Source: a virus (Duplodnaviria; Heunggongvirae; Uroviricota; Caudoviricetes). Taken from it: DNA of 41,358 nt. Location of the stretch: the IMG/VR virus record IMGVR_UViG_2740892232_000004. One strand, written 5' to 3'. Every line of letters starts with the position of its first letter. Position 1 is the stretch's first letter. The notes beneath the pieces were generated by a model. It had not been told where the DNA came from, ran no database searches, and was given only the letters and a program-made list of their open reading frames with translations. Of this stretch, positions 9,830 to 29,302 are shown piece by piece. The position numbers and the translations under genes were made by a program.

Positions 9830-9841
9830 GTGACATGTCAC
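9830..9841. repeat. 12-bp perfect palindrome GTGACATGTCAC (copy 1 of 3)
   Basis: Exact copies also at 27026-27037 and 29291-29302. Confidence 0.6.
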
Positions 9842-9848
9842 GCTCACG

Positions 9849-9989
9849 TTATGACAAGCCTATGTACCCTGCTACACCAGATAATATCATAATAACTGCA
9901 ACAGCAAATTCGCCATCGTCAATGATACATTTACGGTTCATAACGCCAAGTGCAACAAGCGCAAACACAACAAGAATAAAAGCAATCAT
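9849..9989 (-). CDS. Small membrane protein (46 aa) at the end of the virion operon
   Basis: AAGGA RBS then ATG immediately after the stop of the 824-aa virion protein; two hydrophobic segments; followed by the minus-strand terminator. Confidence 0.4.
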   Translation of the reverse strand: MIAFILVVFALVALGVMNRKCIIDDGEFAVAVIMILSGVAGYIGLS

Positions 9990-9998
9990 TTCTCATCC

Positions 9999-12473
9999 TT
10001 ATTGCGGAGTGACATCCTGTGGTCGCCACCAGTATGTCTGGTTAAACTCTTTCTTCGAACGTTGCTCCATTTTACGCAAATAACCTGGTGAAAAATACTC
10101 CTGCATCTGGTTAAAGATCATGTGATCGAGAGCCGCCTTCAAGTACCAGAGATTCGCACCTGGCATCAGACCTTTCCCCAGCTTAACCAGATCACCACCA
10201 GTCTGCTCACTCTTCCCTTCCACAGCATTTAACGGTATGCCCTGAGCAATCTTCACTACGTCATCAACCAGACCAGCTACCGGGCCAAGCATCGACGCCA
10301 GCGCGCCGCTTCCGTACCTAGTGTGATCTGACAATAAAAAGTCACCGTAAAGGCCAAGACCACCACCTTTCAGTAGAGCACCAAGCCAAAATTTAGCAGC
10401 ATCTTCTCCTGTCATCTCGCGAGGATTACGACCAGACGCAAGGTCGTTAAGTTGCTGCGACAAAGCGCCAAGAATGGTCGTACTGGCAATAAACGTCGCA
10501 ATATATGCCGCACGCCCACCAGCAGACGGCATACCCATAGCGCGTGACCAGTGACGCATAACCACCGAGATAGGGAACGATTTAAACAGGAAAACACTTC
10601 TCGTTAATTCACCTTTCCATGTTCCACGCTGAATACCAGAACCGGTTATCAGTTGCTCACGTGCTCCCGGTGTAATAACAGCCATATCAACTTCTTCAGT
10701 TACGGCACCGAGCAGTTTACGCATTGCCTCAAATTTCACGCGTTCAGGCTCACCAAGATGTTTAACTGCTGAATCAGGGATACGCATAATGCTTTCCGGT
10801 GTCAGCATCGTATTATTACCGTTCCCCCAGTCCTCCTGTTTCGCCAGCTTCCATACGCTCCAGTCTGTGTCAGTAATCCCTTTGCTTTTCAGGATACGAA
10901 AATCAGAGTCATCGAGGCTACGAAGGTCTGGTGTACGTGACACTACTTCTCCCAGGCTTCCCATCATGGTTACGCCATAGGCGCGCTTGTGCGCATCTGA
11001 CCATGCTGTAAGCCCACTGGCACGCATTACCGCCGTTGCCGCCCAACGAGACACTGACGGCCCCATATTATCCATCGCCCAGCGGTTAACGCTGCCAAGT
11101 AGAGATTCCATCGCCAGACCAGCGCGGCGCGCCCGCGCAAGTTCTGTACGGTTCGTTGGGTCCATAGCTTCAAGCTGGTTGCGGAATAACTGGTTCATTG
11201 GAAGGTTGGTAACCTTCGCAGACAGATACATGGTTCCAAGATCAGAGAACGATGACAGCAACGCGGATCCGAGTCTGCTGGCAACCAGCCAGTTGCGGAT
11301 ATTGTCAGACCATCGCGCGATGTGCGGATTCGCTACAGGCTGTGTCTTTCCGGAAATAAAGTTGTACAGATTCTCTGTGTTGTTCGCCAGCCGCTCGACT
11401 TTACCGGTTTTACTCGGGTTAGCTGTTGCCGTTTCTGCCTTCACCTGATCAAGAAGAGAGCGGAAAACATGATCGGGGTTTGGGCCATATGTTTCCACCA
11501 GTGCAATATCTTTACTGATACCTTCCAGGTGACCGACCATGATTTCCCATAGAGAGCGATCGCCATAAAGTTGCTGATATTGCAGATAGGAATCTGCATC
11601 TTTGAAATGTATCTGTCGTGATGCATTACCACGGTTAGCACGTGCGCCGGAAATTCGCATTCCGGTATCAGTAAGCTTATTCAGCCCACCAGTAGCGATC
11701 GTGTTATAAGCCTCTCCAAGAAATGAAGACAACTCGGCATCGTTCATCAGTTGTCCATCGGCTCGGATATAATATTTGCGATCCAGCTTACCTATAACAT
11801 CGCTAACCCACTTATCCTTTGATACTGCCCCAACCTTTTCCATAGAATGATGTTGAGGGATCCCCCAGTTTTCGAGATAGCCAATGTCCCCACCAGCATC
11901 ATTAAACCGGCGGCGCAGCAGCTCTGTAACTTCTCTCCACGCCTTAGCACCGTTTCTTGCTTTAGCATTGCCAGTATTTTGCCCCCGCATTTCATATACC
12001 AGGTCACGTACGCCCGCTTCATCTTCAAACAGACCAAAAAAGCGAGGATCAACTGCTTCGAATGCCTCCTGCAATTGACTCAATGCATAATCACGGGTGG
12101 CTTTTGTTCTGGATTCAACAGAGAGGAAATTAGATTTACCGTCTGCATTAAAAGCTATAGTACGGTTAAGAGCGCCAAGTTTCCCATCAGCCCCTTGATA
12201 GCTATTGATAAATTTATCCAATCTCTGACGCGCGGCTATAGTGAGAGCCACACGACGTTTCTTTAATGCCGCTTCTCGCTGTAATTCTTCAGATGCCAAT
12301 TGTGCTGCTCGATATAGCCGCTCTGATTCGGAAAGTTGTCTCCACGACATCGGGTCATCACGAGCAATGGAGCGCATATTTCGATAAATGCGGTCTTCAA
12401 TGTTCTGTATTTCTCGCGCCGTTAACGTGCGCTGCGCCGCCTGCTGGACCGCTTGTATACATTCCTGTCTCAT
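9999..12473 (-). CDS. Internal virion / DNA-ejection protein (824 aa)
   Basis: Large ORF in the run of internal virion genes downstream of the tail tubular genes; no catalytic motif recognised. Confidence 0.7.
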   Translation of the reverse strand: MRQECIQAVQQAAQRTLTAREIQNIEDRIYRNMRSIARDDPMSWRQLSESERLYRAAQLASEELQREAALKKRRVALTIAARQRLDKFINSYQGADGKLGALNRTIAFNADGKSNFLSVESRTKATRDYALSQLQEAFEAVDPRFFGLFEDEAGVRDLVYEMRGQNTGNAKARNGAKAWREVTELLRRRFNDAGGDIGYLENWGIPQHHSMEKVGAVSKDKWVSDVIGKLDRKYYIRADGQLMNDAELSSFLGEAYNTIATGGLNKLTDTGMRISGARANRGNASRQIHFKDADSYLQYQQLYGDRSLWEIMVGHLEGISKDIALVETYGPNPDHVFRSLLDQVKAETATANPSKTGKVERLANNTENLYNFISGKTQPVANPHIARWSDNIRNWLVASRLGSALLSSFSDLGTMYLSAKVTNLPMNQLFRNQLEAMDPTNRTELARARRAGLAMESLLGSVNRWAMDNMGPSVSRWAATAVMRASGLTAWSDAHKRAYGVTMMGSLGEVVSRTPDLRSLDDSDFRILKSKGITDTDWSVWKLAKQEDWGNGNNTMLTPESIMRIPDSAVKHLGEPERVKFEAMRKLLGAVTEEVDMAVITPGAREQLITGSGIQRGTWKGELTRSVFLFKSFPISVVMRHWSRAMGMPSAGGRAAYIATFIASTTILGALSQQLNDLASGRNPREMTGEDAAKFWLGALLKGGGLGLYGDFLLSDHTRYGSGALASMLGPVAGLVDDVVKIAQGIPLNAVEGKSEQTGGDLVKLGKGLMPGANLWYLKAALDHMIFNQMQEYFSPGYLRKMEQRSKKEFNQTYWWRPQDVTPQ

Positions 12474-12478
12474 TTAAT

Positions 12479-14281
12479 TTAACCTCTCAAGAAACACGCC
12501 ACAGCGACATCAAACAGGCTGGAATCCTGTATTGCCTGCTCACTTTCCCTGTTCGCTTCATCCAGTACTTCACGCGCGCTGCGCGATTGTGGATTACCAT
12601 CATCATCCAGCACGGTGATTATCATGTCCGGATATTCAAGCAGCGAGTCTTCAGCTATACGCAGATCAATATCTCCTGCCGGATCTGCCATCATTTTTTG
12701 TTCTGTCTGTTGCAATATCTTACCGGGATCAAAAGGAGCTACTTCGTCTGGCGTCCTGACCTCTGCTGTTTTATAGAATGAAACAGCCTGAGCATTAAGT
12801 TCACTTTCTGCCTGCTGTCTCCGAGCCAGTTCTGCTCGAGCTTCAAAAAACTGACCGCCAGGCTCATGCGGTGCCAACGCGTTACGGGAAAATTCCAGGC
12901 GTTCTTGTGCCTGCCGGATTCGTTGGTCAATATCCCGAAGTCTGGCCTGTTTATCTGATCGAGCACGAGACAAAGCTTTACCGCTACCGGCTGGATCTTC
13001 TGCAAGAATTTGTGCGCGCTGTTCAGTGAGATTTTCAATAATTCGTTGGCTATTAGCGATTTCAGACTGGTAAACCTGTCTATCGCCACGCGGCAAAAGC
13101 TGCGCGGCCTGTTCTTCAAGCAACCGATTTTCTATAGCGCGCGCCGTTACTCCATCATCTACAGATGACAGAGCCTCATTAACTGCCTGAGACAGCAGAC
13201 TCTTGCGTCCAGGAATTTCACTGAAAGATGCAGACTCAACAATGCTGGCAACGTCTACAGGTCTCCCCTGGCTAACATCAGACATGGCTTTTCGCAGAGC
13301 CTGAATGTGCGAATTACGCGAAAGCACGTTGATCGGCACGCCGGGAGCAATATCAATTTCAGCATGATGAGCGGCATTCGCCGCCAGTGCAGCATCGATA
13401 TCAACTGGTGAAAAATTTGGTGCGCTTGTAGACTCGCCGCGAGAGTTAATAAATCTGCCGACACCACCAAACGCCACCCCAAGAACAGCATCAATAGCAA
13501 TTGCCTGTCGATCCAACACATCATACTGGTTAGCCATTTCGCTATAGCCACCATCACGAAGCGTTTTTGCAGTAAGCCCACGCTGTGCCATACCGAACGC
13601 AATATTTGTACCTGCGGCATAGGCAATATCTGGCGTTGCACGTACTGCTGTTGCTGCGGCGCGTCGCACTGAACTTTCACCCGTCCGCGCAAGCTGAGCC
13701 GCCACACCTTCCGCCAGCGCACCACCAGCACGTAACCCGAGGCTCATAGGGATCAGTGTTCCGGCACCAGCAGTAATACCCTGCACTAATCCCGCTTCCT
13801 GCGCCGTCCTGAAATCAACACCCTGTGCTGTAAGCCGTTCAAACTCAGAAAAACCCTGTAGAGAAGTTACCGCCGCAGCACCTCCGACCGGACCACCGAG
13901 CGTTGTACCGACAACAGCCTGCCCGCCCATATCGAACAACCCATAAAGGACCTGCCCGGCGGTTCCGGTTGTCGCGGCATCAGGCGTCAGCCGCTTAACC
14001 TGCTGCTCTGCTAGTTTTCTCTGCTCAGCAATGTATGAAACTGAAGTGTCATTGATCGAGGTGTTTTCGTTAACAAACTGAGCAATCGGGGATACGATTT
14101 TATCCATCCCTGCCCATAGCAACTGATCTGGCTTTGCCACCAGCCCGGAGTACAAACCAGACAATGCCGCTCCTACAGCATTGTCGAAAAAACCAACATC
14201 GCTGTTAAAGCCAGCTGGATTTGATGCTGCTTCGTCAAGCTGCTGATTCTGGTTTACTGGATTAAGGCCAAAGTAACTCAT
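12479..14281 (-). CDS. Internal virion protein (600 aa)
   Basis: Gly/Ala-rich N-terminal half, coiled-coil C-terminal half; position in virion operon. Confidence 0.65.
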   Translation of the reverse strand: MSYFGLNPVNQNQQLDEAASNPAGFNSDVGFFDNAVGAALSGLYSGLVAKPDQLLWAGMDKIVSPIAQFVNENTSINDTSVSYIAEQRKLAEQQVKRLTPDAATTGTAGQVLYGLFDMGGQAVVGTTLGGPVGGAAAVTSLQGFSEFERLTAQGVDFRTAQEAGLVQGITAGAGTLIPMSLGLRAGGALAEGVAAQLARTGESSVRRAAATAVRATPDIAYAAGTNIAFGMAQRGLTAKTLRDGGYSEMANQYDVLDRQAIAIDAVLGVAFGGVGRFINSRGESTSAPNFSPVDIDAALAANAAHHAEIDIAPGVPINVLSRNSHIQALRKAMSDVSQGRPVDVASIVESASFSEIPGRKSLLSQAVNEALSSVDDGVTARAIENRLLEEQAAQLLPRGDRQVYQSEIANSQRIIENLTEQRAQILAEDPAGSGKALSRARSDKQARLRDIDQRIRQAQERLEFSRNALAPHEPGGQFFEARAELARRQQAESELNAQAVSFYKTAEVRTPDEVAPFDPGKILQQTEQKMMADPAGDIDLRIAEDSLLEYPDMIITVLDDDGNPQSRSAREVLDEANRESEQAIQDSSLFDVAVACFLRG

Positions 14282-16791
14282 TGCGGAATATCTCCGGAGA
14301 ATCTCTGACGCTTCTGTGTCAGATTAAGAACAACGGGAGAACCATCATCTTTCAGCAGATAACCAGTACCAAGTTTCACCAGGTACTGACTATCGCCGTA
14401 ACTTTGCAAACCATACTGACCAGGCGGTGTTTTTATCCCGGAGCCGACAACTTGTTCATTCCAAGCCTGATTAACCTGCTTATCGAATTGCTCTGCAGAC
14501 ATTCCCCACGGCAAAAGGACATTCCCCATTCCGTTATAGTCATGCACGCCACCTGTAGCTACGTTAACAGCCTGTTTCCAGACATCATTGTCAATTTCGC
14601 CTGATACCACGCCTTTTTTCGCCATCACACCAGCGTAATAATCCTTTGCGATCTCGTATGCCATTGATGCGCCCTGAGCGTCACCAGCAAATGCATCCTT
14701 CACCATGTCAGAAAACTCAAGGCGAAGATCAGCATCTTTAGGCATCGGAATACCTTTCGCATCATCAGTACCTTTACGAGCCGCCGCGCCAGCAAGAATT
14801 GTCTGCGCAGCGGTTTCAGGAGACACGGAAACATCCGGATTAAACCAGTTTTTTTCTGCCAAAATACCACCAGGCTTATCCATCAGTATCCCGGCAACGG
14901 CAGCAGATGGAGCGTTGGCACTGATCTGCTGTAGTGCTGACATATACACCTGCCCACCACCAGTGCTCTGCCTGATGGTATCGAGATATGCTGCCTGTTG
15001 GGAAACTGGAGCATCACGAAAGAAAACACCGATCTGATTGGCCTCGTCTTTGGAAAAGAACGTCAGTGGAGTGCCATATGACTTAGCAAGGTCACTGACC
15101 TGAGCGGCACGCAAGGCAACGCTCTGTCCAAAGTTATCCTTATTGCTCATGTCGATAGGCTTTGCCTGTCGGGAGGCAAGAGAGAACTGCACAGGATCCG
15201 ACTGCCGCTGCTTTATCACCTGATTTGCAGCCGAAACAACGTTGTCATAAAGAGTTGCGCGTGCCGCATACCCCTCCCCTGTATCACCAGTATCCGGGCG
15301 TAATTGCTCAACATATGCTGTAATGCTGCTTGTCGGCATGTTGCGGAAAGAGCCTATATACTGTCCGGCGATCTGCGTATTCTTAAACTCGGTATATCGC
15401 AGGTTTCCTTCTCTGACTCCATAAGCTGCAATAAAATCATCCTCACCAGGTGGGTTAGGAAATTCAATGCCACGCATATACGCAGCCGTCGCATCGCGAA
15501 CCCGGCTGTCGAGCATCGTTTTATATTCAGCCTGCTGTTGTCTGGCTAGTGCATCAGTCTGTCGCAACACGCTGGCCTGATCTGATTCACTTAAAGCATC
15601 GAACCAGGCTACACCGGTATAACGTTTATTTTTTGTCGGTAGCTGAGAAAGCCCCAGCGCAGCACTAACACCTGCAGTTAACTGCTGATCACTGTATGGC
15701 TGGCTACCGTTTTCATGATGGATAATGGCTGCACAAAGCGCCTTCAGGGTATCAGGATTTGATGCATCGAGAGGCTCATCAGCAGAAACGCCAAGTTGTT
15801 CGCACACTGCTTTGATATACGACATAGTGTCATTTTTATCAGTAGGCGGTGCCCAGCGATTAATTATCTCGCTGACGGTATCAATACCCTGCCGCTGATA
15901 CGACATCAGGTTCCGCCCTAATGCACGAATACCGTGTTCAGGGGTTTCGAATTTGGCAAAGCGACCATCATCACCAGTCTGCCCAACCCACGGATTAGTT
16001 TTGCTGTATTCAAGATTGCCGGGGTTATTGTTGCGTATACCGCGGGTACGATCGGAAGAGCCACTATCTGCTACAGCACGGCGAGAACCAGCAGCAGTAT
16101 CGCTTAACTCGCCGTTTTGCTGTCTTACCTGAAGATAGTTTGCTCCAATAGCATTTTGAGCAGTTGCTTTTGCTGTTGCTTCTTTAAACTCGATTTTCTT
16201 GGCCTGGATTTGCTCGTCACTCCAGCCATGTGCAATGCCGTAATCCTCAATTTGCTGGAAAGTTTGCTTATTAGCCAATACGTATGCGGCGTTGTCGCCA
16301 TACAATGCTGCGGCATTTTTACCATTGTTCAGCAGCGTAGCCTGAAACTGGCCTTCTTCGTAGGCATTTATTTGCCCTATCTCGTGCCGCCCGGCCTGCG
16401 TAGTGAACTGAATGCGCTGCTGCTGCGCCTGCTGCATGAAAGCATTACGAGCCTGTTCATCCGGCAGCGACATAGCCAGTTGTTCGACCTGAGCATCAAA
16501 CTGCTGCGTATACTCCTGACCTTTTCCAATAGCATTTTTCCCTTTCAGGTTAAGCAAACCTGTTTCAGGGTTATTCAGCAGATCGCTGCTTATCTGGCTT
16601 AAGCTAAGAGAAGCATCCTGAGCCATAGCAACATTCGCACGCTGTTTTGCCTGCGCAATAATACCTGCATATTGCTCTGCAACATCGCCAAGTACATCAC
16701 CGACATTTGGTGTCTGAAACGATGAGAATCCCTGCGTCGAAATCCCTCTGCTCTGAACCTGACGGCCCGATGTTGTTGGTACAACTGGCAT
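14278..16791 (-). CDS. Internal virion protein with putative peptidoglycan-hydrolase-type motif
   Basis: 837 aa; segment GIRNNNPGNLEY…WVG…FAKFETPEHGIRA resembles motifs I recall from virion-associated cell-wall hydrolase domains (uncertain). Confidence 0.65.
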   Translation of the reverse strand: MPVVPTTSGRQVQSRGISTQGFSSFQTPNVGDVLGDVAEQYAGIIAQAKQRANVAMAQDASLSLSQISSDLLNNPETGLLNLKGKNAIGKGQEYTQQFDAQVEQLAMSLPDEQARNAFMQQAQQQRIQFTTQAGRHEIGQINAYEEGQFQATLLNNGKNAAALYGDNAAYVLANKQTFQQIEDYGIAHGWSDEQIQAKKIEFKEATAKATAQNAIGANYLQVRQQNGELSDTAAGSRRAVADSGSSDRTRGIRNNNPGNLEYSKTNPWVGQTGDDGRFAKFETPEHGIRALGRNLMSYQRQGIDTVSEIINRWAPPTDKNDTMSYIKAVCEQLGVSADEPLDASNPDTLKALCAAIIHHENGSQPYSDQQLTAGVSAALGLSQLPTKNKRYTGVAWFDALSESDQASVLRQTDALARQQQAEYKTMLDSRVRDATAAYMRGIEFPNPPGEDDFIAAYGVREGNLRYTEFKNTQIAGQYIGSFRNMPTSSITAYVEQLRPDTGDTGEGYAARATLYDNVVSAANQVIKQRQSDPVQFSLASRQAKPIDMSNKDNFGQSVALRAAQVSDLAKSYGTPLTFFSKDEANQIGVFFRDAPVSQQAAYLDTIRQSTGGGQVYMSALQQISANAPSAAVAGILMDKPGGILAEKNWFNPDVSVSPETAAQTILAGAAARKGTDDAKGIPMPKDADLRLEFSDMVKDAFAGDAQGASMAYEIAKDYYAGVMAKKGVVSGEIDNDVWKQAVNVATGGVHDYNGMGNVLLPWGMSAEQFDKQVNQAWNEQVVGSGIKTPPGQYGLQSYGDSQYLVKLGTGYLLKDDGSPVVLNLTQKRQRFSGDIPQ

Positions 16792-16803
16792 CTTATTATC
16801 CCC

Positions 16804-17343
16804 TTATCGACCGGTTGGAGTGCCAACAGCAGCAGAAATCGGCGCAGCCTTCTGAGAGAACGGGCTCCACGTTCCGCCGCCCATCTGGTATGCACCGTAT
16901 GCTTTTAGTGGTGCCGTTAACAAAGTGCTGGTCATCGATGATTTAGCAGCCGACTGAGCAGCAGCCCCCTGTGCCTGAGCATTCATTCCCTGAACCTGAT
17001 ACCCATATGCCTCACGCTGAGCATTATTCACTGTCGTTAACGCATCAAGAGTGCCGAACTGAGCATTATCCGCAAAAACGTCAAGAGCTGTTCCGCTACT
17101 TAATTCCGCACCGGTAGCCCCCATAGTGGCCGCCGCAGTGCCTGAGCGTTGACGCATTTCACGACGACGCTGATCCGCTTCAATATTCCCACGATTGATT
17201 GAATCCTGTGCCTGAGCTTCAGCAATTTCAGCATTCCGATCAGCTATGGCTGACTGGTATTTTGCCTGCTTGCTCTGGCTGTACATTGACGCGGCTGTGG
17301 ATGCCACTGTGACGGCAACCAAAGCGATGGCTGGGTTACACAT
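16804..17343 (-). CDS. Virion-associated protein (179 aa)
   Basis: Position between tail tubular B-like gene and large internal virion genes; Ala/Gln-rich. Confidence 0.55.
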   Translation of the reverse strand: MCNPAIALVAVTVASTAASMYSQSKQAKYQSAIADRNAEIAEAQAQDSINRGNIEADQRRREMRQRSGTAAATMGATGAELSSGTALDVFADNAQFGTLDALTTVNNAQREAYGYQVQGMNAQAQGAAAQSAAKSSMTSTLLTAPLKAYGAYQMGGGTWSPFSQKAAPISAAVGTPTGR

Positions 17344-17807: not shown

Positions 17808-20278
17808 CAGAACCCACCAACAGTAAGGCGAGGAATAACGGCAAGAACAGACAGCGGCAACGGATCAAGCTGACGGATTTTTACACGTCCGTTTTTGCCC
17901 CAGTTACTGTCCAGTTTCACTTCTACTTTTCCGGTAGCATCATCAACAGGATCATCGTAGAACTCGAATTCACGCTGTGGATATTCGTACCATTTACCGC
18001 CGGGCGTAGTCGCCCAGATGCCGCGACTGGCATTCACAACCAGAGTAACGGACGGGATCACCTGTTTTTTGTCCAGCAGCGTTTCCTGTCCGTTAATGTT
18101 GATATCCAGTGTTTCGAATTCAGCAGTTATTGGCAGGCCGATGTGCACTACAGCCCCCGGTGATTCCAGCGTGACGGCACATCCGGAAACCACTTTCTGT
18201 GGTTCCACGTTCGCATCAGAGAGAATGTTTACGGTCTGGCCTTCAAGATGAGACAGGCCTCCAAATGTCCGGCGCGCCATCTGCCAGTTCGTGGTGGCCA
18301 CATTCCTGAGGGATGGCGGGACGTTCCTGTTAGCACGAACCACTACAGCGGTATTGCTGGTTACAGAAATAATGTCGCAACGTAATTCTTTTGACACCTC
18401 ATCGCCAGTATCAGGATCAGTTCCGGTATAAGGGAACTGTAGTTGCGCGCCGACATCACTACTGGTGAAGTACGCACCACCAGAAACACTGATTGTATAT
18501 TCCGCGCGGTAATCCCATTCGCCAGAACCACCAGTGATGATCATCGTTCTGTCAGACGTATTTCTTCCATCATAGCTAAGGCCAGAATCAACAAAGAAAG
18601 CATCTTCATCGCTGGTAAATAAACGGCTGGACAGTCGCTCGATGTATCTCACTGTTTGCCCGTTAACGGTTCGGTTAACGACGAAATACACCGCATCTTC
18701 ATTGCCTTCGCTGATACTGCATGTGCTTTCATATTTTCCGGTACTGGATTGTGGTGCCCATGCAAAAACCTGCTGATCACGCAAATAGGTCATCACCAGT
18801 AATTTACCGTCATCACGGATGCAGAAGGCGCTGGAGTAAGGGACTATTGAGAAGCACCAGTCAACAATGCTGTGCTTCTGAAAAAGATGATTGGCAAGGA
18901 TAGTAAGGTCGTTCCCCTGATAGCCGTCAACATCGAATGAGTAGGCCAGATCACGGACAACACTGCCTTTCTCCTGGACGAACAGAGCAATATTCGCCAC
19001 GGCAATTGGTGGGACATTGCTCGAGCCATTTGATCCCTGAGAGCTGAATGCAAATGATGATGGGGTAAGCACTTTGTTCTGGTCGCCAGTGATGACGTAC
19101 TCACCTCCGGAAGTCAGCGCCACCAGCGAACCAACATCAATCAGGTGACGGATCTCATTAACCTGACGCCCGGCATAGGTGTAGATAATTCTGTCGTCAT
19201 CCTGCGTAGGATTGCTTTTGCCAAAATCCTTATAATCCCCAGTACGGCTGGCCCAGATAGTCTGAGGGAACGCAGTCGATGCGGCGAAGTAAAGACGCTG
19301 TTGATAATAAACAACAGTGCCAGGATAACCATTAACACTGTTCCAGGCATATTTAGCCCATTTATAGCTGGCATTATCCTCGCCAACGACCTGCGAAGGG
19401 ATATAGGAAATCACCTCGGCAGTTGCAGTAGTGCCATTTGCAGCAGTGATACGGGCAATGCCAAAACCACTGTGCAGATACTCCCACTCAATGCCAGTAT
19501 CATCATCACCGGATCCGCCCCAGCCATCCCATGATGTGCCTTCTGTATGCGAAGGGCGCAAAGTACCTGTTTTGCCTGCTGTAACGGCGCGATAGTAGTT
19601 ACTGTCTGCACGGCGAATATCGCCAATCGACGTACTCTTACTGGTTTCCCATACAGGTACTGAATCCACTGCAGGCTGTTCCAGATAGAACAATTTGCCT
19701 ACCTGCTCCGCGCCAAAAATAGAGACGCTTGCCGTTAACGTAATTGTCCCGGTGCTGGCGCTGGCATAAACCGTCACTGACTCATCAATATTGATATCTT
19801 CAAATGGCCCGTTCTTCGTTACCACATCAACCAGTTGCCAGTTGTCATGCGCATAGCGACGCAACTCTTTCGGCGGGTATGCCGGATGAACAAGCGTAAG
19901 CACGTCTGCGCTTTGCGTGAATTTAATTCGGAACAGATCGGCTTCAGTATATGGCGTGGCAATTTCATAAATAACATTGCTGCTGTTCAGCACCAACGCA
20001 CCATCTTTGATAACGCGCATGTACTGGTGTCCGAACTCCAGAGCATAGGTCTGAACCGTCGAGAACTGGAACGGGATCAGGCGGCATTTCCGATTTGGGT
20101 ATTTGGCGGCACCGACAAAACGCGTACCAGGTCGATTCTCAACGCCGCCATACTGCCGCACGATAAAGTTATCGCACTTGCGCAATGCCACCTGGTACTT
20201 CGCCATGTCGATACGTCCGTACAACGACGGTCCAATCTCACCACCAGCAAAGCTGGGCTGGATCCAACTGATAGCCAT
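17807..20278 (-). CDS. Tail tubular protein B-like / tail hub protein
   Basis: 823 aa, follows the tail tubular A-like gene with overlapping stop/start; size and position as in T7-type tails. Confidence 0.65.
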   Translation of the reverse strand: MAISWIQPSFAGGEIGPSLYGRIDMAKYQVALRKCDNFIVRQYGGVENRPGTRFVGAAKYPNRKCRLIPFQFSTVQTYALEFGHQYMRVIKDGALVLNSSNVIYEIATPYTEADLFRIKFTQSADVLTLVHPAYPPKELRRYAHDNWQLVDVVTKNGPFEDINIDESVTVYASASTGTITLTASVSIFGAEQVGKLFYLEQPAVDSVPVWETSKSTSIGDIRRADSNYYRAVTAGKTGTLRPSHTEGTSWDGWGGSGDDDTGIEWEYLHSGFGIARITAANGTTATAEVISYIPSQVVGEDNASYKWAKYAWNSVNGYPGTVVYYQQRLYFAASTAFPQTIWASRTGDYKDFGKSNPTQDDDRIIYTYAGRQVNEIRHLIDVGSLVALTSGGEYVITGDQNKVLTPSSFAFSSQGSNGSSNVPPIAVANIALFVQEKGSVVRDLAYSFDVDGYQGNDLTILANHLFQKHSIVDWCFSIVPYSSAFCIRDDGKLLVMTYLRDQQVFAWAPQSSTGKYESTCSISEGNEDAVYFVVNRTVNGQTVRYIERLSSRLFTSDEDAFFVDSGLSYDGRNTSDRTMIITGGSGEWDYRAEYTISVSGGAYFTSSDVGAQLQFPYTGTDPDTGDEVSKELRCDIISVTSNTAVVVRANRNVPPSLRNVATTNWQMARRTFGGLSHLEGQTVNILSDANVEPQKVVSGCAVTLESPGAVVHIGLPITAEFETLDININGQETLLDKKQVIPSVTLVVNASRGIWATTPGGKWYEYPQREFEFYDDPVDDATGKVEVKLDSNWGKNGRVKIRQLDPLPLSVLAVIPRLTVGGF

Positions 20279-21206: not shown

Positions 21207-21214
21207 ATACACTC

Positions 21215-21240
21215 CTGCAATAAAGGGGCCGAAGCCCCTT
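21215..21240 (-). terminator. Intra-operon hairpin (attenuator/terminator-like) downstream of capsid-proximal genes
   Basis: AGGGGC-CGAA-GCCCCT hairpin followed on the minus strand by TTATTG. Confidence 0.4.
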
Positions 21241-21256
21241 GTCTGATCCGCGAGGC

Positions 21257-21601: not shown

Positions 21602-21602
21602 C

Positions 21603-22040: not shown

Positions 22041-22091
22041 CTTCTTTCTCCATTAGTGGGTCTGTTACGACCCACAGGTTAATAACAGGCG

Positions 22092-23078: not shown

Positions 23079-23092
23079 TGTCATTTCCTCTC

Positions 23093-23788
23093 TTATTTGC
23101 CATAGAGCACTTCGGCCGCACTACGCTGGCCTTCATTACCACCGGTGACCATGCCATCTTCAGACATCGCCTTTCCGATTTTCACGAACGTTTTGACCAG
23201 ATCAGGGTGATTACCCAGCCCGGTGGTGTTCAGATATTCTTTGAGTTCAGGTGTCCCGAACTGGTCAAGCGCACGCTGTGCGGCGCTAAGGTTAGAAATC
23301 AACTTGTCGCCACCGATTTCTTTGTCGGCTTTTACATCCGCAGCCCACTGCTCGGTTGTTTTCTGCCAGGCTTCTGCCTGGCGCTGCTGAACACCTGCCA
23401 GAATCTTCGGATAAGCATCAACCAGCTTTTGCGCTTGCTCGTTGGTCAGGTTTAGTTCTCGCGCCACCGGCTCGAATTCCTTCAACGCTTCTGTATCCAG
23501 CTCTACGCCTTCGGCAGCCTGAAACTCGTACTTTTCAGGCGCACCCTCTGGTTTATCGCCGTCCTTTTTTTCATCCTGCTTATCGTTTTCAGGCTTTTTG
23601 TCATCAGCAGGTTTATCGCCATCAGCAACAGGTTGTGGCTTATCACCTTCCTGTTGTGATGGATCACCAACTGGAGCAGGGTTATCACCTGCAGGCGCTG
23701 ACGGTTCTGACGCAGCCGGAGCTGCTCCACCATCGACTGGTTGCTCATTGCAAAGACGGCGATACAGCAAACGCTCAAATAAATTCAT
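23093..23788 (-). CDS. Scaffolding protein
   Basis: Low-complexity acidic, Pro/Ala/Lys-rich N-terminal half and helical C-terminal half between portal and capsid genes; AGGAG RBS before ATG at 23788. Confidence 0.7.
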   Translation of the reverse strand: MNLFERLLYRRLCNEQPVDGGAAPAASEPSAPAGDNPAPVGDPSQQEGDKPQPVADGDKPADDKKPENDKQDEKKDGDKPEGAPEKYEFQAAEGVELDTEALKEFEPVARELNLTNEQAQKLVDAYPKILAGVQQRQAEAWQKTTEQWAADVKADKEIGGDKLISNLSAAQRALDQFGTPELKEYLNTTGLGNHPDLVKTFVKIGKAMSEDGMVTGGNEGQRSAAEVLYGK

Positions 23789-23790
23789 GA

Positions 23791-24087
23791 TCACTCCTGT
23801 TCACTGGCCTCTTTGGCCATCTTCAAATACTGTTCAGGGCAATGCGCCATAACGCGCTGAAACAGTTCCAGCGCCAGATTGCGTTGCCCCTCATTAAATG
23901 CCATTGCCATAGCATCCATCGGAGAGATAGCGGAAAACACCCGGCCTTTCTCCAGCACCGACCAGACAACGCGACGCCCCTGTTCACTGCTCATGACAAA
24001 GCGAATGTCATCAATTTCACGCTGTGCCATGTCACGTTGCTTACGGGCGTTTTCTTCTTTCAGTTGATCGTCTTCGAAATCTGTCAT
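23791..24087 (-). CDS. Small head-assembly-module protein (98 aa)
   Basis: Translationally coupled between portal and scaffold genes. Confidence 0.55.
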   Translation of the reverse strand: MTDFEDDQLKEENARKQRDMAQREIDDIRFVMSSEQGRRVVWSVLEKGRVFSAISPMDAMAMAFNEGQRNLALELFQRVMAHCPEQYLKMAKEASEQE

Positions 24088-25763
24088 TGTGATTGCCCAC
24101 CCTGACCACTAACTGCATTCGCCATAGCTGACAAAACACTCGGATCCGAAGTTTTAGCTTCGCTTAGCGTCTTGGCACCCTGTGCCGCCGCCATCCCCAT
24201 CGCCATCATTTGTTGCTGCTGTTGTTGCTGTGCCCGTTGCTGGCGAGCCTGCTCAACCTGTTCCTGCGGAACAATGACGGTTGGAGACACTCCGGACATA
24301 TCAGCGAATGCATCGATCGCCTGATCAACGTTGAGTTTGTCGAGAGCTTCTGGTTTCGCTTGCGCAAGTTGACCAATGAAGTTAACCGTGGACGCCAGAC
24401 TGGACAGGCCGATAGACTTCTGCGCCTGAGCCATGACGGAAATGTATTCGACCTTCAGGGGCATGCCTTCCATCGCGTCAGGCGGTGTCGGCAGCATGTT
24501 TTTACGCACCATCATCGAGAAAGCGCGGTCAATGAGAGGATTAAGACATTCGTCGTTCAGACGCTCCAGAACCGGCCCCAACATCAGAAGTTTTTCTTCT
24601 TTCATTTCGATCACCGCTTCAACAGGCATCGAGCGGGTATTGATGTTCTGCAACATCATGAACAGATCGACAAAGTAGGCGCTGTTAATGATTTGACGGG
24701 TGTCCTGAATGTCTGCCACCAAATCTGCTGTACTGGGGTTAACCAGATAAGCAGGCCTGAAACCATCCTGACCAGTAATCTGATCGATATACGTGATGTC
24801 GCCAGGAAGAAGGGAGGCACGCTGATTCTTGAGGGAAGTCGGAGCAACCATCGGCGGATTGGTGGCTTTATCAATCAACTGCGACTTGCGCTTCTGGAGA
24901 AGCTGCAATGCCTTAACAGGTCCAAGCGCCAGCATACCCGGGCATGATGATCCATAAACATCTTCGCCGTTAACTTCCCAGCGCGGAGCCATAATTGGAA
25001 ACTCATCGAATCCGGACTCACGCAACAACTTGTCGTTATCGCCACCAACCTCGTAATAAACCGATTTGAATGGCTTGTTCTTGCTATCCAGCTTCGATGT
25101 ATCGCGGTCAATGTTCGGGTAAACCGAATGCATCACTTCAATCCACTTCTCGTAGGTGCCGCTTTCCCACATGCTTTTTACGGATTCGCTGACGTTATTT
25201 AGCCCGAACTCCTGAACAAGCTGACGAACAGTCATAGAGAACTTGCGAAAACAGGTGTCCACACTGCCACGAGGTGAGTTAGCCAGGTAGTAACTGCCTA
25301 TCGGGAATGGCATTGTGCGAATGATGTCCTCGTCATCCTCCAGCACCGCCATTGCACCAGTGCTGTATGTGCCGAGGCTTCCGTATAACTGCGGAAGAGA
25401 CTGGTAGAGATTCGACTTATTGAACATATCGTTCATGCGGTTCTGAACTGCCTCAAGCCACAACTTAACAGGGCCATAGTCCATCATTTCAGGATCTGGC
25501 GTAGCCAGGCGAAACCACGGACGGGCGGGGCTTGTTATGCCTGACATCATGCCGCTGGCAAGAGTGCGCGCCGCCATAGTCCCGGTCGAATCAATAATGC
25601 GTGTATTGCGTCGATCGTTACGGTTAACCTCAGAAGTCAGAAAGCGGGAACCACGCGGGTTGATGTAATCACTCAACTCGCGCCAGTGCGGCTCGAACGA
25701 CTGACGCTCGCTTTCAAGTTGTGCGAACTGTTTGTTCAATCGCTCTTTAGTTGTTTCCGCCAT
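24084..25763 (-). CDS. Portal protein
   Basis: 559 aa upstream of the scaffold/capsid genes; Gln/Ala-rich C-terminal tail. Confidence 0.8.
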   Translation of the reverse strand: MAETTKERLNKQFAQLESERQSFEPHWRELSDYINPRGSRFLTSEVNRNDRRNTRIIDSTGTMAARTLASGMMSGITSPARPWFRLATPDPEMMDYGPVKLWLEAVQNRMNDMFNKSNLYQSLPQLYGSLGTYSTGAMAVLEDDEDIIRTMPFPIGSYYLANSPRGSVDTCFRKFSMTVRQLVQEFGLNNVSESVKSMWESGTYEKWIEVMHSVYPNIDRDTSKLDSKNKPFKSVYYEVGGDNDKLLRESGFDEFPIMAPRWEVNGEDVYGSSCPGMLALGPVKALQLLQKRKSQLIDKATNPPMVAPTSLKNQRASLLPGDITYIDQITGQDGFRPAYLVNPSTADLVADIQDTRQIINSAYFVDLFMMLQNINTRSMPVEAVIEMKEEKLLMLGPVLERLNDECLNPLIDRAFSMMVRKNMLPTPPDAMEGMPLKVEYISVMAQAQKSIGLSSLASTVNFIGQLAQAKPEALDKLNVDQAIDAFADMSGVSPTVIVPQEQVEQARQQRAQQQQQQQMMAMGMAAAQGAKTLSEAKTSDPSVLSAMANAVSGQGGQSQ

Positions 25764-25777
25764 TTCAATGACTCCGG

Positions 25778-25984
25778 TTACTGACCAAGCAGCGTTTTAC
25801 CGCTGGTATTAGCGGTTGATGTGTCGCCCTGAGAACCGGTAAGCAGCGTAGAACTACGACCAGCAGCAGCGCGACGGCGACGAGTTTCTTCGTCGCGGGC
25901 ATCAACAACGGCGGCATCCTGCTCCTGTGGTGCTGCCTGAACTTCTGGTGTTGCAGGCACTGATGGTGAGCTACCCATGCACAT
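25778..25984 (-). CDS. Small protein upstream of portal (68 aa)
   Basis: ATG preceded by GGAGTCATTGAT, nearly identical to the portal translation-initiation region; Ala/Thr-rich. Confidence 0.4.
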   Translation of the reverse strand: MCMGSSPSVPATPEVQAAPQEQDAAVVDARDEETRRRRAAAGRSSTLLTGSQGDTSTANTSGKTLLGQ

Positions 25985-26073
25985 ATCAATGACTCCGTAC
26001 GCAATTAAATTATTACCAATTTAACCACATATGATTTATTTATCGTAGGTAGTTGACATTTAACGCACAAATT

Positions 26074-26090
26074 ATTACCTTTCAGGTAAC
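26074..26090. repeat. Palindromic motif ATTACCT-TTC-AGGTAAC (copy 5)
   Basis: Upstream of the portal operon; consensus TTGACA -35 hexamer on the plus strand 17 bp upstream of the left arm. Confidence 0.55.
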
Positions 26091-26401
26091 CAAAGAGTTC
26101 ATTCCGGTTACTAACCTGACTGGCTTGTCGTTAAATTGAACAGGTGGAGTGAGCTTTTATTTTGAGCAGTACGGCGTATGGCACATGCGCCGATAGCGGT
26201 CTGGATACGTTTAAGGGGCACCCTCCCTTGCTCGGGCAAACGAACCAGGTAGCCGGAATGTGCAAGTCGAGCGGTTTTATTCCGCGCACGGGGATTCACC
26301 ATCCCGGCGATTCGGTGTGACGCCTCGGAAGAGACGAGGGTACAACGATGAGAGCATTTATGGAGCCGCGACAAAGTGTGGCGCCTTAACAGGCTAAGTG
26401 C

Positions 26402-26478
26402 TCTCAGCGTTGTGGCATTAGCTCAGTTGGACAGAGCAACCGCCTTCTAAGCGGTTGGTCGCAGGTTCGAATCCTGCA
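26402..26478 (+). tRNA. tRNA-Arg (anticodon UCU)
   Basis: Folded by hand: 7-bp acceptor stem GUGGCAU/AUGCCAC, D-arm GCUC…GAGC, anticodon stem ACCGC/GCGGU with loop CUUCUAA, T-arm GCAGG-UUCGAAU-CCUGC, discriminator G, encoded CCA. Confidence 0.85.
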
Positions 26479-26531
26479 TGCCACGCCAGAATCACGCCTA
26501 AGGACCGTGATGCCAGAAGTTCCAGGTGCTT

Positions 26532-26574
26532 GGCGGTGATGGTTTCCCTTGAAGGACTATCACCGCCCTTTTTA
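26532..26574 (+). terminator. Terminator-like hairpin downstream of the tRNA
   Basis: GGCGGTGAT…ATCACCGCC stem (large loop) followed by CTTTTT. Confidence 0.5.
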
Positions 26575-26651
26575 CAGCAGGACGCCATTGCGATGACTTC
26601 ATGCTGTAAACCAGTACAGCCACGGAAGGCATAACTCATTGCTTCCAGTTC

Positions 26652-26676
26652 GCCCGGTTCGTCCGGGCATTTTTTT
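26652..26676 (+). terminator. Rho-independent terminator/attenuator immediately upstream of the 26689 gene RBS
   Basis: GCCCGG-TTCGT-CCGGGC followed by T7, then AAGGTGA RBS and ATG. Confidence 0.6.
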
Positions 26677-26688
26677 AAGGTGAAAATC

Positions 26689-27021
26689 ATGAAAGAGAAG
26701 ACTGCAGCTGAGCGCTATGCCGCAGCTATCAATGCCGCGATGGCGATTGTAAACCTGCGTGAAGAGATTAAAGATCTCCTTGCAATTATCCATAACAACC
26801 TGACATGTACAGAGTTGCTTGGCGGTCAGTACAACGGTGAGGCGGTGAAGGAGGCATTTAAAAATGCCGAGGTAGGAATAATTCCAGCAAACTATGTCAA
26901 GGCTGAATGTGTGCTCCTAAAGGCACGAGTGAGTCTGCATGAAGATCCTGGTAATCTCGGTCGAACTGCAATGCGTTACGTGATAGACGAGTCGAATGCC
27001 AAACACAATCTACCGAAATAA
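26689..27021 (+). CDS. Hypothetical protein (110 aa) on the plus strand inside the morphogenesis region
   Basis: ATG with AAGGTGA RBS; opposite strand to flanking terminase/portal genes. Confidence 0.55.
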   Translation: MKEKTAAERYAAAINAAMAIVNLREEIKDLLAIIHNNLTCTELLGGQYNGEAVKEAFKNAEVGIIPANYVKAECVLLKARVSLHEDPGNLGRTAMRYVIDESNAKHNLPK

Positions 27022-27025
27022 CACC

Positions 27026-27037
27026 GTGACATGTCAC
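27026..27037. repeat. 12-bp perfect palindrome GTGACATGTCAC (copy 2 of 3)
   Basis: Between terminase large-subunit stop and the plus-strand gene; GTAGATT lies 11 nt downstream on the minus strand. Confidence 0.6.
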
Positions 27038-27111
27038 AAACAGACAGCCTATGAGCTGGCTTTGTTTTATCCTCACCAGAGGATATCAACGACATTATCC
27101 CCACCAGCGGA

Positions 27112-28587
27112 TTAAGCATAGGGATCGTAATCTGTGATGGCCTTGCCTTGCTGGTTCTGCTGACCGGGAATTCGCAGACGCTTCGACACAGGGAACGCAA
27201 ACGTCAGCAGTAGCGCATCGCCTTTACCAGGAGAACGCCCAAGTCGCTCTTTGATATCTTCCTTCGGTTCGATAACGATTTTACCGTCCACTCGAACTTT
27301 GTACTCTGCTGCCGACAGGTCGTCCGCTGTTTCCTGGTCATCCAGCATGCCGCCCAGCCTCAGCCATGTCTTGCATGAATTGAACATCTCCCCACGCTTG
27401 TTGAGCATCTGCGGGTCAGTAGACGCGCCACCGAACGGAACAAGTTGCCATGTACGACCCCATCCGTCACCGATTGACTTCAGACCGGTTCCGTAACCGA
27501 AGTCGATGAACACCGCGTCAGCCTGATACTGGTCTTCAAAGTCAGCGATACGCTTCGCCATAATCAGATCGTCGGTAGTCTTGTTGCCAGTCCACAGCAC
27601 CTTACTGTGTAGCCCCTGCCGCAGGTATATCACCGCGTCATCAACGCCTGAATATGCCGGGTCAACACCGATTATCACCGGAGCATGCGCCACCTGCGCA
27701 GCGGTTACCACCCGTTTCATTGCCTCATCAGTAAGACCGGTAGGGATAAACTGCAATTCAGATGCATCAGGGAATATGCCGCGCACACGGATTTTAACGA
27801 AGTCGCTGTCTTCCCCGTAGTCATCAACCCATTTCTGCAACTGCTGTTTGTTAGTGCCTTCCACCGTTCGGCTGTCAATCTGCGCAGTTTTCCAGCGGTG
27901 TTTATATTTGCGGAAACATTCGCGGAAACGTCCGGTATTACGCGTCGGGTTTCCGAACGCCACCCAGATAATCTCAGTGTCTTCGTCCGTTAGTGCACCC
28001 TCGGCAACTTCCCACACCAGATCCGCAATGTTCGACGCTTCATCGAATACCACGATGATGCGTTTGCGCTCGTTGTGTAGTCCGGCGAATGCCTCAGTGT
28101 TGTGCTCAGACCAGGGGATTGCGTCAGCTCGCCACCGCTTGTCGTGTCCAGGATCATTGCTGTACATCGCGGTAGCGGTACAGGTAAACCAGTCTTTCGT
28201 GATAGCAAGGTTCGACCACTTGATAATTTCCGGCCAGGTCTTCGTTCGTAGCTGGTTGTCGGTGTTGGCGGTCACCACGACCTTACAATCCTCGCAAGTG
28301 GACATGCCCCAGTTGATCAGCATTGAGATGAATGCGGATTTACCAATACCGTGACCCGAAGCACGTGCCAGCATAAGCGGCTGATAGCGCGTCTCTGGAT
28401 TCTGCAGGTGATCACGTATCTCTCGGAACGCATCAGCCTGCCACTGACGTGGGCCGGTAGCATGTGCCAGTTCAGTCCCCTCTTCCCCCCACGGGAACGC
28501 ATAGAGGGCATAGCCAAGCGGATCGTGAGTGAACCCTGCAATATCCTCGATCAACTGCTCTTCAGGAGATAACGCTGTATCTGTCAC
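27112..28587 (-). CDS. Terminase large subunit
   Basis: 491 aa; Walker A-like SGHGIGKS; acidic nuclease-type C-terminal half; start overlaps small-subunit stop. Confidence 0.85.
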   Translation of the reverse strand: MTDTALSPEEQLIEDIAGFTHDPLGYALYAFPWGEEGTELAHATGPRQWQADAFREIRDHLQNPETRYQPLMLARASGHGIGKSAFISMLINWGMSTCEDCKVVVTANTDNQLRTKTWPEIIKWSNLAITKDWFTCTATAMYSNDPGHDKRWRADAIPWSEHNTEAFAGLHNERKRIIVVFDEASNIADLVWEVAEGALTDEDTEIIWVAFGNPTRNTGRFRECFRKYKHRWKTAQIDSRTVEGTNKQQLQKWVDDYGEDSDFVKIRVRGIFPDASELQFIPTGLTDEAMKRVVTAAQVAHAPVIIGVDPAYSGVDDAVIYLRQGLHSKVLWTGNKTTDDLIMAKRIADFEDQYQADAVFIDFGYGTGLKSIGDGWGRTWQLVPFGGASTDPQMLNKRGEMFNSCKTWLRLGGMLDDQETADDLSAAEYKVRVDGKIVIEPKEDIKERLGRSPGKGDALLLTFAFPVSKRLRIPGQQNQQGKAITDYDPYA

Positions 28588-29177
28588 TGATTACCATCCT
28601 GACGTTCTTTGAGTCGCTTCCTGGCTGCTGCTATGCGATCAGCAATTGTCACATTCACATTAACATCCAGACGTTCTTTGAACGCGTTGACATCAACATG
28701 CTTACCAATCAGCTCAAGGTTCTTCACCTTGTCAGGCCATTTAATTTTTTTGAGGATTGTCTCTATCGAATCCTCGTTCATGTTCATGATGGTCGATGAC
28801 AGATCAAAGCCACTAAGCGTAGTGCGCCAGATTTTCGGCCACTCACGGATTGGTTTAAGGCTCCCATCGTCGTTGAGGATGTCGATCACGTCCATCTGGT
28901 CGATCTCCACCAGGCGCATGAGAACGTAATCAGCACTGACGCGCATTCGTTTGTTGCGCTCCTCCATCAACTCGGCAATCCGTTTTTGAATGCGTTCATC
29001 GCGCATCATGACACTGGCTTTAACTGCCGCTGTATTTGGGGAGAATCCTGCGTTAATCGCTGCCTGAGTCTGGTTTTCAGGCGTTTTGATGTATGACTGG
29101 CAATAAGCCTCCTGCATTGCTGTTAGTGGCTTAAATTGCGTTGATTTGCGTTTATAGGTTTTAGGTTCAGCAGGCAT
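28584..29177 (-). CDS. Terminase small subunit
   Basis: Immediately upstream of and overlapping the large subunit; start set at the internal Met pair because the track ORF 5' end runs through a terminator hairpin. Confidence 0.6.
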   Translation of the reverse strand: MPAEPKTYKRKSTQFKPLTAMQEAYCQSYIKTPENQTQAAINAGFSPNTAAVKASVMMRDERIQKRIAELMEERNKRMRVSADYVLMRLVEIDQMDVIDILNDDGSLKPIREWPKIWRTTLSGFDLSSTIMNMNEDSIETILKKIKWPDKVKNLELIGKHVDVNAFKERLDVNVNVTIADRIAAARKRLKERQDGNQ

Positions 29178-29196
29178 CATAACCACCGTGGTAATA

Positions 29197-29213
29197 GTTA
29201 CCGTTGTGGTAAT
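29197..29213. repeat. Palindromic motif GTTACCG-TTG-TGGTAAT (copy 6) within tandem ACTATTACCAC direct repeats
   Basis: TTACC-N5-GGTAA core just upstream of the terminase small-subunit start. Confidence 0.45.
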
Positions 29214-29221
29214 AGTACCAT

Positions 29222-29249
29222 GCAAAATAAAGCCGCCATAGTTGGCGGC
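29222..29249 (-). terminator. Minus-strand rho-independent terminator between the late promoter region and terminase genes
   Basis: GCCGCC-AACTAT-GGCGGC (minus-strand sense) followed by TTTATTTTG. Confidence 0.6.
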
Positions 29250-29290
29250 AGTATTCAAAACCCATCAAATTCATCATGCATAATCTACTC

Positions 29291-29302
29291 GTGACATGTC
29301 AC
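29291..29302. repeat. 12-bp perfect palindrome GTGACATGTCAC (copy 3 of 3)
   Basis: Lies between a TTAATA -35-like and a TAGATT -10-like hexamer on the minus strand, about 40 nt upstream of the terminator at 29222-29249. Confidence 0.6.

Follow-up and report, generated by a model that had tools for sequence, protein, structure and literature searches.

The DNA analyzed here, IMG/VR virus record IMGVR_UViG_2740892232_000004 (41,358 nucleotides [nt]; hereafter the window), carries a 12-base palindrome, GTGACATGTCAC, which lies at the ends of genes and operons. An exact scan of the window finds exactly three perfect copies, at 9830-9841, 27026-27037 and 29291-29302, against 0.00 expected from 100 dinucleotide-preserving shuffles. 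A sequence-only reading had drawn attention to these copies and had placed two of them on either side of the terminase genes, and both points hold: copy 2 lies after terL and copy 3 ahead of terS, so that together they bracket the pair. By its megablast identities we assign the window to the epsilon15-like (Uetakevirus) temperate podophages, as positions 25700-29800 are ~96-97% identical to Escherichia phages phiv142-3, HEMP4, ZX5 and phiV10 and ~81% identical to Salmonella phage epsilon15.

The minus strand of the window corresponds to the plus strand of epsilon15. Along it, the early-right genes, the last of which is open reading frame (ORF) 29299-29637, are followed by a strong terminator, terS and terL. 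An opposite-strand moron unit with a tRNA-Arg then precedes the gp3-to-gp18-like virion operon, which ends at 9849, and beyond this lie an opposite-strand ant-region unit and, last, the tailspike and lysis genes. The small terminase subunit gene, terS (28584-29180, minus strand), is recognized by Pfam Terminase_2, and its start is homologous to that of epsilon15 terS; we favor the ATG at 29180 over the TTG at 29258, from which the gene would span the terminator. The large subunit gene, terL (27112-28587, minus strand), is assigned from the annotation of relatives.

All three copies adjoin hairpins. Copy 3 (site A, 29291-29302) contains the TGA stop codon of ORF 29299-29637, the gene of the candidate regulator described below, and marks the end of the early-right operon. 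On the minus strand it lies 41 nt upstream of tA (29222-29249, minus strand; stem 29249-29232, GCCGCCAACTATGGCGGC, followed by TTTATTTT), a strong terminator between the regulator gene and terS; the earlier estimate of about 40 nt, and the terminator itself, are borne out. Copy 2 (site B, 27026-27037) occupies a convergent junction, just after minus-strand terL and 4 nt past the stop of ORF 26680-27021, which belongs with the tRNA-Arg to the plus-strand moron unit. A weak hairpin at 27045-27058 (27058-27045 on the minus strand) runs into it. Copy 1 (site C, 9830-9841) lies 8 nt past the stop of the last virion-operon ORF (9849-9989, minus strand), at the convergent junction with the plus-strand ant-region unit. 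This is the end of the virion operon, as the sequence-only reading stated, and the copy abuts the terminator of that operon (9802-9829, minus strand; stem 9829-9812, AGGCCGCTTTCGCGGCCT, plus TGTTTTT), which is strong and starts on the base after the palindrome. Judged as intrinsic terminators (a GC-rich hairpin followed by a T-run), two of the three adjoining hairpins are strong and one is weak.

At up to two mismatches the window holds a single near-copy, GTGCCATGTCAC (24024-24035, one mismatch), within the gp5-like coding region. It is kept as coding sequence in many relatives (seen as GTGACATGGCAC) and is probably not functional.

The palindrome and its gene across temperate phages

The sites are conserved among relatives of the window phage. 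Epsilon15 has exactly three copies at the three homologous places (one follows terL, one lies where gp18 ends and one overlaps the gp49 stop), SPN1S has three, PAT1 has two perfect copies and, at site B, one with a single mismatch, and Tyrion has three, one of which runs across an arbitrary record junction. The homologues of site C are found at 19517 in epsilon15, 19662 in SPN1S, 3438 in PAT1 and 20377 in Tyrion. The arrangement at site A recurs in the same four phages, and when it was counted among 80 IMG/VR Uetakevirus-like loci, the palindrome fell exactly on the stop codon of the gp49-like gene in 77; terminator tA is also kept in epsilon15, PAT1 and Tyrion. Site B is retained after terL in epsilon15, SPN1S, Tyrion and ~55 of 77 IMG/VR loci. 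Here the terL side and the palindrome are constant and the moron side carries at least eight different cargos. The hairpin beside it is, in relatives, a strong terminator in the moron direction, with the order palindrome, 4-6 nt, hairpin, T-run. More generally, Uetakevirus sites B and C have a fixed layout: along the direction of the unit ending at the site come the gene stop, the palindrome, 0-6 nt and the terminator.

The DNA beyond copy 3 is far more variable, with at least four unrelated arrangements: an epsilon15 type, a type with an extra small ORF, a type with a umuD-like moron and a LexA box, and that of the window. In relatives, morons are inserted into the gap that separates palindrome A from the terS terminator (L028, 1087-1330; L060, 2182-2590). 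One type of insertion there is a 69-amino-acid ORF starting 9 nt after the palindrome, and another brings a umuD-like gene together with a promoter and a LexA box (TACTGTTTAAATATACAGTA) of its own. The GenBank record of Enterobacter phage Tyrion (L007) opens exactly at the dyad center of palindrome A, between ..GTGACA and TGTCAC... We considered whether the record ends are physical DNA ends and rejected this, as the genome announcement states that the DNA is circularly permuted; the opening is therefore arbitrary.

The gene that ends in copy 3 (29299-29637, minus strand; GTG start at 29637) encodes a 112-amino-acid protein of the epsilon15 gp49/N15 gp46 family (phrog_536). The sequence-only reading had nominated a 78-residue product of 29299-29535 as the binder of the palindrome. 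This protein remains the best candidate, given its co-occurrence and physical overlap with the site, but its coordinates required correction, and an N-terminus conserved in homologues (MAKSPAERK) supports the longer version. PHROG 536, which the protein matches, is annotated generically as 'transcriptional regulator', and database entries read 'hypothetical protein'. Pfam, NCBIfam and PDB sequence searches with the window protein gave no match; some family members match Pfam RHH_5 or RHH_1 weakly. The family comprises at least 150 clusters at 50% identity, includes phiKO2 gp45 and extends to P2-like, lambda-like and Vibrio phages. Its members share an N-terminal helix of basic character, a core of strand-helix-helix topology and four cysteines in the pattern C-x2-C-x7/8-C-x8-C.

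The AlphaFold2 model of the regulator (pLDDT 90.5) has the beta-strand, helix, helix topology of the ribbon-helix-helix (RHH) fold, whose members pair as dimers through a two-stranded ribbon, and from it we confidently predict an RHH domain joined to a zinc ribbon. A Foldseek search against PDB and BFVD returned no characterized full-length match. A profile search of PDB sequences gave marginal matches only, to the zinc fingers of YbiI and TraR (E 0.05-0.09). Membership in the DksA/TraR family was rejected: Pfam zf-dskA_traR is not matched, the cysteine spacing differs and the preceding helix is part of the RHH fold.

Unrelated phages with a homologue of the regulator show the same arrangement of gene and palindrome, and the element can therefore be generalized to a core of GTGAC-NN-GTCAC. 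With its flanks this becomes Y-GTGAC-NN-GTCAC-R, a 14-bp site (YGTGACNNGTCACR); the flanking Y/R is present in 92% of sites, and all three window copies conform. In N15, gp46 ends in GTGACTGGTCAC, with the site overlapping the stop, and two further copies lie elsewhere in the genome; phiKO2 has the same three sites, including GTGACTGGTCAC at the regulator stop. Annotated plasmid-partition sites were considered as an identity for the N15 and phiKO2 palindromes and rejected, since the coordinates differ. In P2-like Yersinia phages the regulator gene ends in GTGACGCGTCAC, again overlapping the stop, and of the three 12-bp sites in Vibrio phage K233 one precedes the terS ATG by 19 nt.

This linkage was quantified in 82 distant loci (1.29 Mb) retrieved by similarity to the regulator protein alone. 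The site with a 2-bp spacer occurs 118 times in them, compared with 0-11 times for each of the other spacers (N0-N7) and 1-4 times for the reversed arrangement, where 1.2 are expected in each case. Loci that lack a perfect site have one-mismatch sites 22 and 43 nt after the regulator gene. As a within-lineage control we used 80 P2-like loci retrieved via the portal gene: the site is present at the gene end in 14 of the 14 that carry the regulator gene and in none of the 66 (929 kb) that do not. For most P2-like members the copy beside the regulator gene is the sole site. In another subfamily the palindrome instead overlaps the GTG start of the gene, GTG ACx xGT CAC being read as M-T-x-H. This subfamily is GC-rich (L100, L104, L138, L145, L165 and others, at locus position ~10001), and its gene follows an integrase gene; further sites lie on the stop codons of successive small genes, each 25-30 nt before the next ribosome-binding site. 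Taken across these sequences, protein and site form a module shared by many temperate phages infecting Enterobacterales, Vibrionales and Aeromonadales, with host taxonomy of the distant loci taken from isolated phages only.

Boundary control and competing explanations

The position of the sites relative to genes points to a role in gene expression. In more than half of 142 sites (56%), the TGA serves as the stop codon of an ORF 50 or more codons long, compared with 17% per strand for random TGA triplets. Many have a ribosome-binding site and start codon 12-36 nt downstream, and 20% lie within 30 nt of a strict terminator, as against 3.7% of random positions. Because of these stop-codon, ribosome-binding-site and terminator biases, and of the fixed order at Uetakevirus sites B and C, we place the sites at cistron and operon boundaries, and it is this placement that makes a dispersed-operator boundary regulator the most likely function. 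We give roughly even weight for and against the full proposal, namely that the three palindromes are cognate sites of the phage's own 112-residue RHH-zinc-ribbon protein and that it acts in this way. Its parts differ in strength. That the regulator binds the palindromes is, on the evidence of linkage, probable, and the free central dinucleotide and flanking Y/R fit recognition of DNA by a dimer. That the effect of binding is boundary or roadblock control is a more tentative suggestion.

A regulator dimer would contact each site with its RHH beta-ribbon and basic N-terminal helix and would control transcription across cistron or operon boundaries, either by serving as a roadblock or insulator or by modulating neighboring terminators. 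In the window, the boundary at site A would be that where the early-right operon gives way to terS, at site B the junction of terL with the moron unit, and at site C the close of the virion operon. The regulator may also control its own gene, as is suggested by the way one site adjoins or overlaps that gene, as with RHH repressors. If true, the proposal would assign a DNA target, and hence a testable function, to a widespread 'hypothetical' phage family and would reveal a conserved layer of genome punctuation at the operon and cistron boundaries of temperate phages.

Several observations sit poorly with boundary control. Some sites are intragenic (in N15 repA, and in the prohead protease gene of the L145 type), which is odd for a roadblock, and closeness to terminators could merely reflect a preference for non-coding gaps. 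About a quarter of Uetakevirus-like loci lack site B, which is therefore not essential. A position beside the terminase genes recurs in four lineages, which the boundary model does not explain and which hints at a role specific to the packaging module. Text searches for the site sequence and for phage matS-like or MatP-like systems returned nothing relevant in the literature. The intragenic and terminase-side sites leave some probability to alternatives at the level of chromosome architecture, the packaging module and RNA.

The sequence-only reading had itself offered a different mechanism, in which copy 3 lies within a Q-like late promoter (TTAATA-N17-TAGATT) in a pR'/tR' layout. That promoter matches at 8 of 12 positions, falls under the scan threshold and is not conserved, and point variants such as GAGTGGGTT in relatives destroy the proposed '-10'. 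The only promoter-like match that the scan gives at copy 3, GTGACA-N18-CATGAT (9/12), starts in the palindrome, and promoter-like matches in this region are no commoner than in shuffles. The GTAGATT noted beside copy 2 reads, on the opposite strand, as the final codons of the moron ORF (..HNLPK and stop) and is absent from relatives with other morons. Copies 1 and 2, like most sites elsewhere, lie at gene ends, at intercistronic junctions or just upstream of terminators rather than in promoters, and Pfam, NCBIfam and PDB sequence searches detect no Q-family domain (Q-lambda, Q21 or Q82 type) in the regulator. The family and its site also coexist with other late regulators: N15 and phiKO2 have the Q-like gp40/gp38 together with a late promoter/terminator located elsewhere, and late control in the P2-like carriers is of the Ogr type. 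Given these coexisting activators and the unconserved promoter, a family-wide late-antiterminator role is unlikely, although the protein may have a local antitermination effect at tA. The Q-like reading thus probably has the right binder, and its terminator is real, but its promoter, the Q identity and a promoter setting for the other copies are not supported, and the mechanism is probably wrong.

In this model the protein encoded upstream would load onto RNA polymerase at a late promoter containing copy 3 and carry it through 29222-29249 into terS and terL. In its favor, the order of regulator gene, site, strong terminator and late genes resembles Q-pR'-tR', the 9/12 match from the palindrome has an epsilon15 counterpart (GTGACA-N17-TAAATT), and the marginal profile similarity of the zinc region (E 0.05-0.09) is to the RNA polymerase-binding TraR/YbiI. 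We nevertheless consider it improbable, because the hexamers proposed for it are unconserved and many relatives have other genes in place of the DNA that follows the palindrome, because copies 1 and 2 and the N15 and P2-like sites lie outside late-promoter contexts, and because the zinc region neither matches zf-dskA_traR nor shares its cysteine spacing. Somewhat less unlikely is an architectural system of the MatP/matS kind, in which dimers at dispersed sites would bridge or organize the phage chromosome (for example, through a 2.3-kb A-B loop around the terminase genes) or act on the host MukBEF/Ter machinery rather than on RNA polymerase. The half-sites of the phage element are identical to those of Escherichia coli matS (GTGACRNYGTCAC), its sites are few, dispersed and at lineage-conserved positions, some of them intragenic, and the hosts of the isolated phages (Vibrio, Aeromonas, Enterobacterales) coincide for the most part with the MatP/MukBEF clade. 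True matS is absent from the window, where the 13-bp sequence does not occur even with one mismatch, and prophages are reported to avoid it (PMC3603311). Set against these points are the 2-bp spacer, the lack of detectable MatP homology and of its four-helix bundle and coiled coil, at least one Pseudomonas record and some GC-rich loci outside the MatP clade, and the strong bias toward stop codons, ribosome-binding-site-proximal gaps and terminators, which looks related to gene expression.

Control at the level of RNA would have the protein bind, with its arginine-rich N-terminus or zinc ribbon, a hairpin formed by the transcribed palindrome and in this way govern translation of the next cistron or formation of the terminator (BglG- or Com-like). 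Many sites are indeed followed at 12-36 nt by a start codon or overlap that of the regulator itself, a terminator stem follows window copies 1 and 2 at 0-6 nt, and minimum-free-energy folds include a hairpin of 4-5 bp. This hairpin (4 bp with a 4-nt loop) is unstable in centroid structures, however, the RHH fold reads double-stranded DNA, and the invariant C5/G8, strict 2-bp spacer and free central bases fit dimer-DNA contacts better, so we regard RNA-level action as very unlikely. Still less probable is a packaging signal that brackets the terminase genes and promotes terminase expression or the recognition of pac. In its favor, terS-terL lies between copies 3 and 2, the K233 site lies just upstream of the terS ATG (19 nt), and sites fall on the terL stop in L156 and L160 and at the terL 3' end in two P2-like loci; yet cos phages (N15, P2-like, lambda-like) and headful phages alike carry the module, no site is close to the terminase genes of N15 or phiKO2, the regulator-side site is the sole one in most P2-like members, and the mid-palindrome opening of the record of circularly permuted Tyrion is arbitrary. 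Chance, a host repeat family or binding by host MatP can be given almost no weight. The resemblance to host matS is real, but no copies are expected by chance, homologous positions are kept in phages of E. coli, Salmonella, Enterobacter and Klebsiella, co-occurrence with the phage gene is perfect, and the spacer is one base shorter than that of matS, of which no 13-bp copy is present. Two further known sites were rejected: the CRP site differs in spacing and the SlmA site (GTGAGTACTCAC) in its inner bases.

Other features of the window

A second, unrelated palindrome family, TTACC-N5-GGTAA (15 bp each), has 11 copies in the window against 0.04 expected, at 6617, 7737, 7830, 8897, 26075, 29198, 33024, 33086, 35373, 36085 and 36147. 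Homologous sites are annotated in the epsilon15 record as prophage-repressor operators. Some copies fall in the immunity and ant regions; others precede the gp3 cluster, the tailspike gene and, between terminator tA and the ATG, terS. From these positions, every late gene block seems to be guarded by such an operator.

The moron unit between the gp3 gene and terL contains, on the plus strand, a tRNA-Arg (anticodon TCT) at 26412-26488, with two strong terminator-like hairpins downstream of it (26532-26567 and 26652-26668); the epsilon15 record annotates an RNase III site in the region homologous to this stretch. Rfam models for isrK (7881-7957, plus strand; 67.7 bits) and C4 antisense RNA (7982-8065, plus strand; 66 bits) match above the gathering score directly upstream of the ant-like ORF 8099-8824. 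The ant region is an anti-repressor unit of the P1/P7/N15 type under antisense-RNA control, and the end of the unit is at palindrome copy 1. Two small hydrophobic ORFs, 29627-29752 (minus strand; MNKCNALLYAMVIGFGLAAG..), which overlaps the regulator start codon, and 9849-9989 (minus strand; MIAFILVVFALVALGV..), the gp18-like last ORF ahead of copy 1, likely encode small membrane proteins of a kind easily overlooked in annotation.

Relation to known regulatory systems

The closest known relative of the site is matS. A passage of PMC3603311 that quotes Mercier 2008 gives it as GTGAC[AG]N[TC]GTCAC, 13 bp with a 3-bp spacer, and the E. coli consensus is GTGACATTGTCAC (PMC8669397). As this consensus has the same half-sites with a spacer of 3 rather than 2, the window site amounts to matS minus one central base. 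The 2-bp spacer of the phage site is characteristic of the family (118 N2 sites versus 11 N3 sites in the 82 loci). N3 sites are mildly enriched there (11 versus 1.2 expected), and K233 (L010) carries one true 13-bp matS-type sequence at 19491-19503, GTGACACCGTCAC, beside its three 12-bp sites.

The likeness extends to the protein fold, since MatP contacts matS through a central ribbon-helix-helix, aided by a four-helix bundle (PMC12756933), and the phage regulator shares an RHH core. It lacks the four-helix bundle and the C-terminal coiled coil of MatP and has a C-terminal Cys4 zinc ribbon instead. The MatP Pfam domains PF06303 and PF17414 were not found in 56 family members at E<=1, hhalign of the family against MatP gave a probability of 0.2%, Smith-Waterman comparison with shuffles gave z-scores with a median of 0, and MatP was not among the matches of the regulator profile search of PDB sequences. 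The MatP homologues that we retrieved were all at least 97% identical, too uniform for a useful MatP profile. With no detectable sequence homology, other domains that differ, a spacer one base off and no 13-bp matS in the window, the regulator is not a MatP family member; the likeness is one of fold class and half-site only. The two systems also differ in setting: MatP/matS is chromosomal, the organizer of the Ter macrodomain and unloading site of MukBEF, with sites confined to Ter and a protein that interacts with ZapB or MukBEF, whereas the phage pair is phage-encoded, with sites at the gene boundaries of a 40-kb genome.

We speculate, at low confidence, that phages of MatP/MukBEF-bearing hosts carry a matS-like system of their own, in which the RHH-zinc-ribbon protein and a few 14-bp sites, one base pair offset from matS, organize or insulate the phage chromosome. 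Such a system may work by looping, by excluding or unloading host SMC (structural maintenance of chromosomes) complexes or by positioning DNA, and it might be evolutionarily related to the origin of MatP/matS. The near-identity to matS was unexpected and, if the main proposal is true, would together with the reported avoidance of matS by prophages make a possible link between phage modules and host chromosome organization directly testable.

Among other RHH proteins, the repressors and centromere binders (Arc, Mnt, CopG, omega, ParG, MetJ) and the RHH antitoxins share the fold, and a dimer on short symmetric sites is what they would lead one to expect. The phage regulator departs from them in its fused zinc ribbon and in sites that are dispersed over the genome, on stop and start codons and in terminator-proximal gaps rather than at its own promoter. 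The window phage also has no partner toxin or ParA. The C4 zinc fingers of DksA/TraR follow an acidic-tipped coiled coil or N-terminal helix and have the pattern CxxC-N17-CxxC, which is not that of the regulator.

Lambda Q has its binding element embedded in a constitutive late promoter, ahead of a promoter-proximal pause and a terminator (pR'-tR'). The window resembles this system in that its early-right operon closes with a regulator gene, after which come a presumed DNA site and a strong terminator, before the late genes. The phage regulator differs in having no Q homology, no evident conserved promoter or sigma-dependent pause element, and further sites at operon ends. If the boundary proposal is true, the late-gene junction of epsilon15-like phages is not simply a copy of that of lambda. 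Regulators that act from dispersed operators or as roadblocks include P1 C1, with its many scattered operators, and LacI, PurR and CodY. These differ from the phage regulator in fold and site. In general terms, the shared arrangement would be one small regulator with several operators scattered over the genome, some of them within or between transcribed genes.

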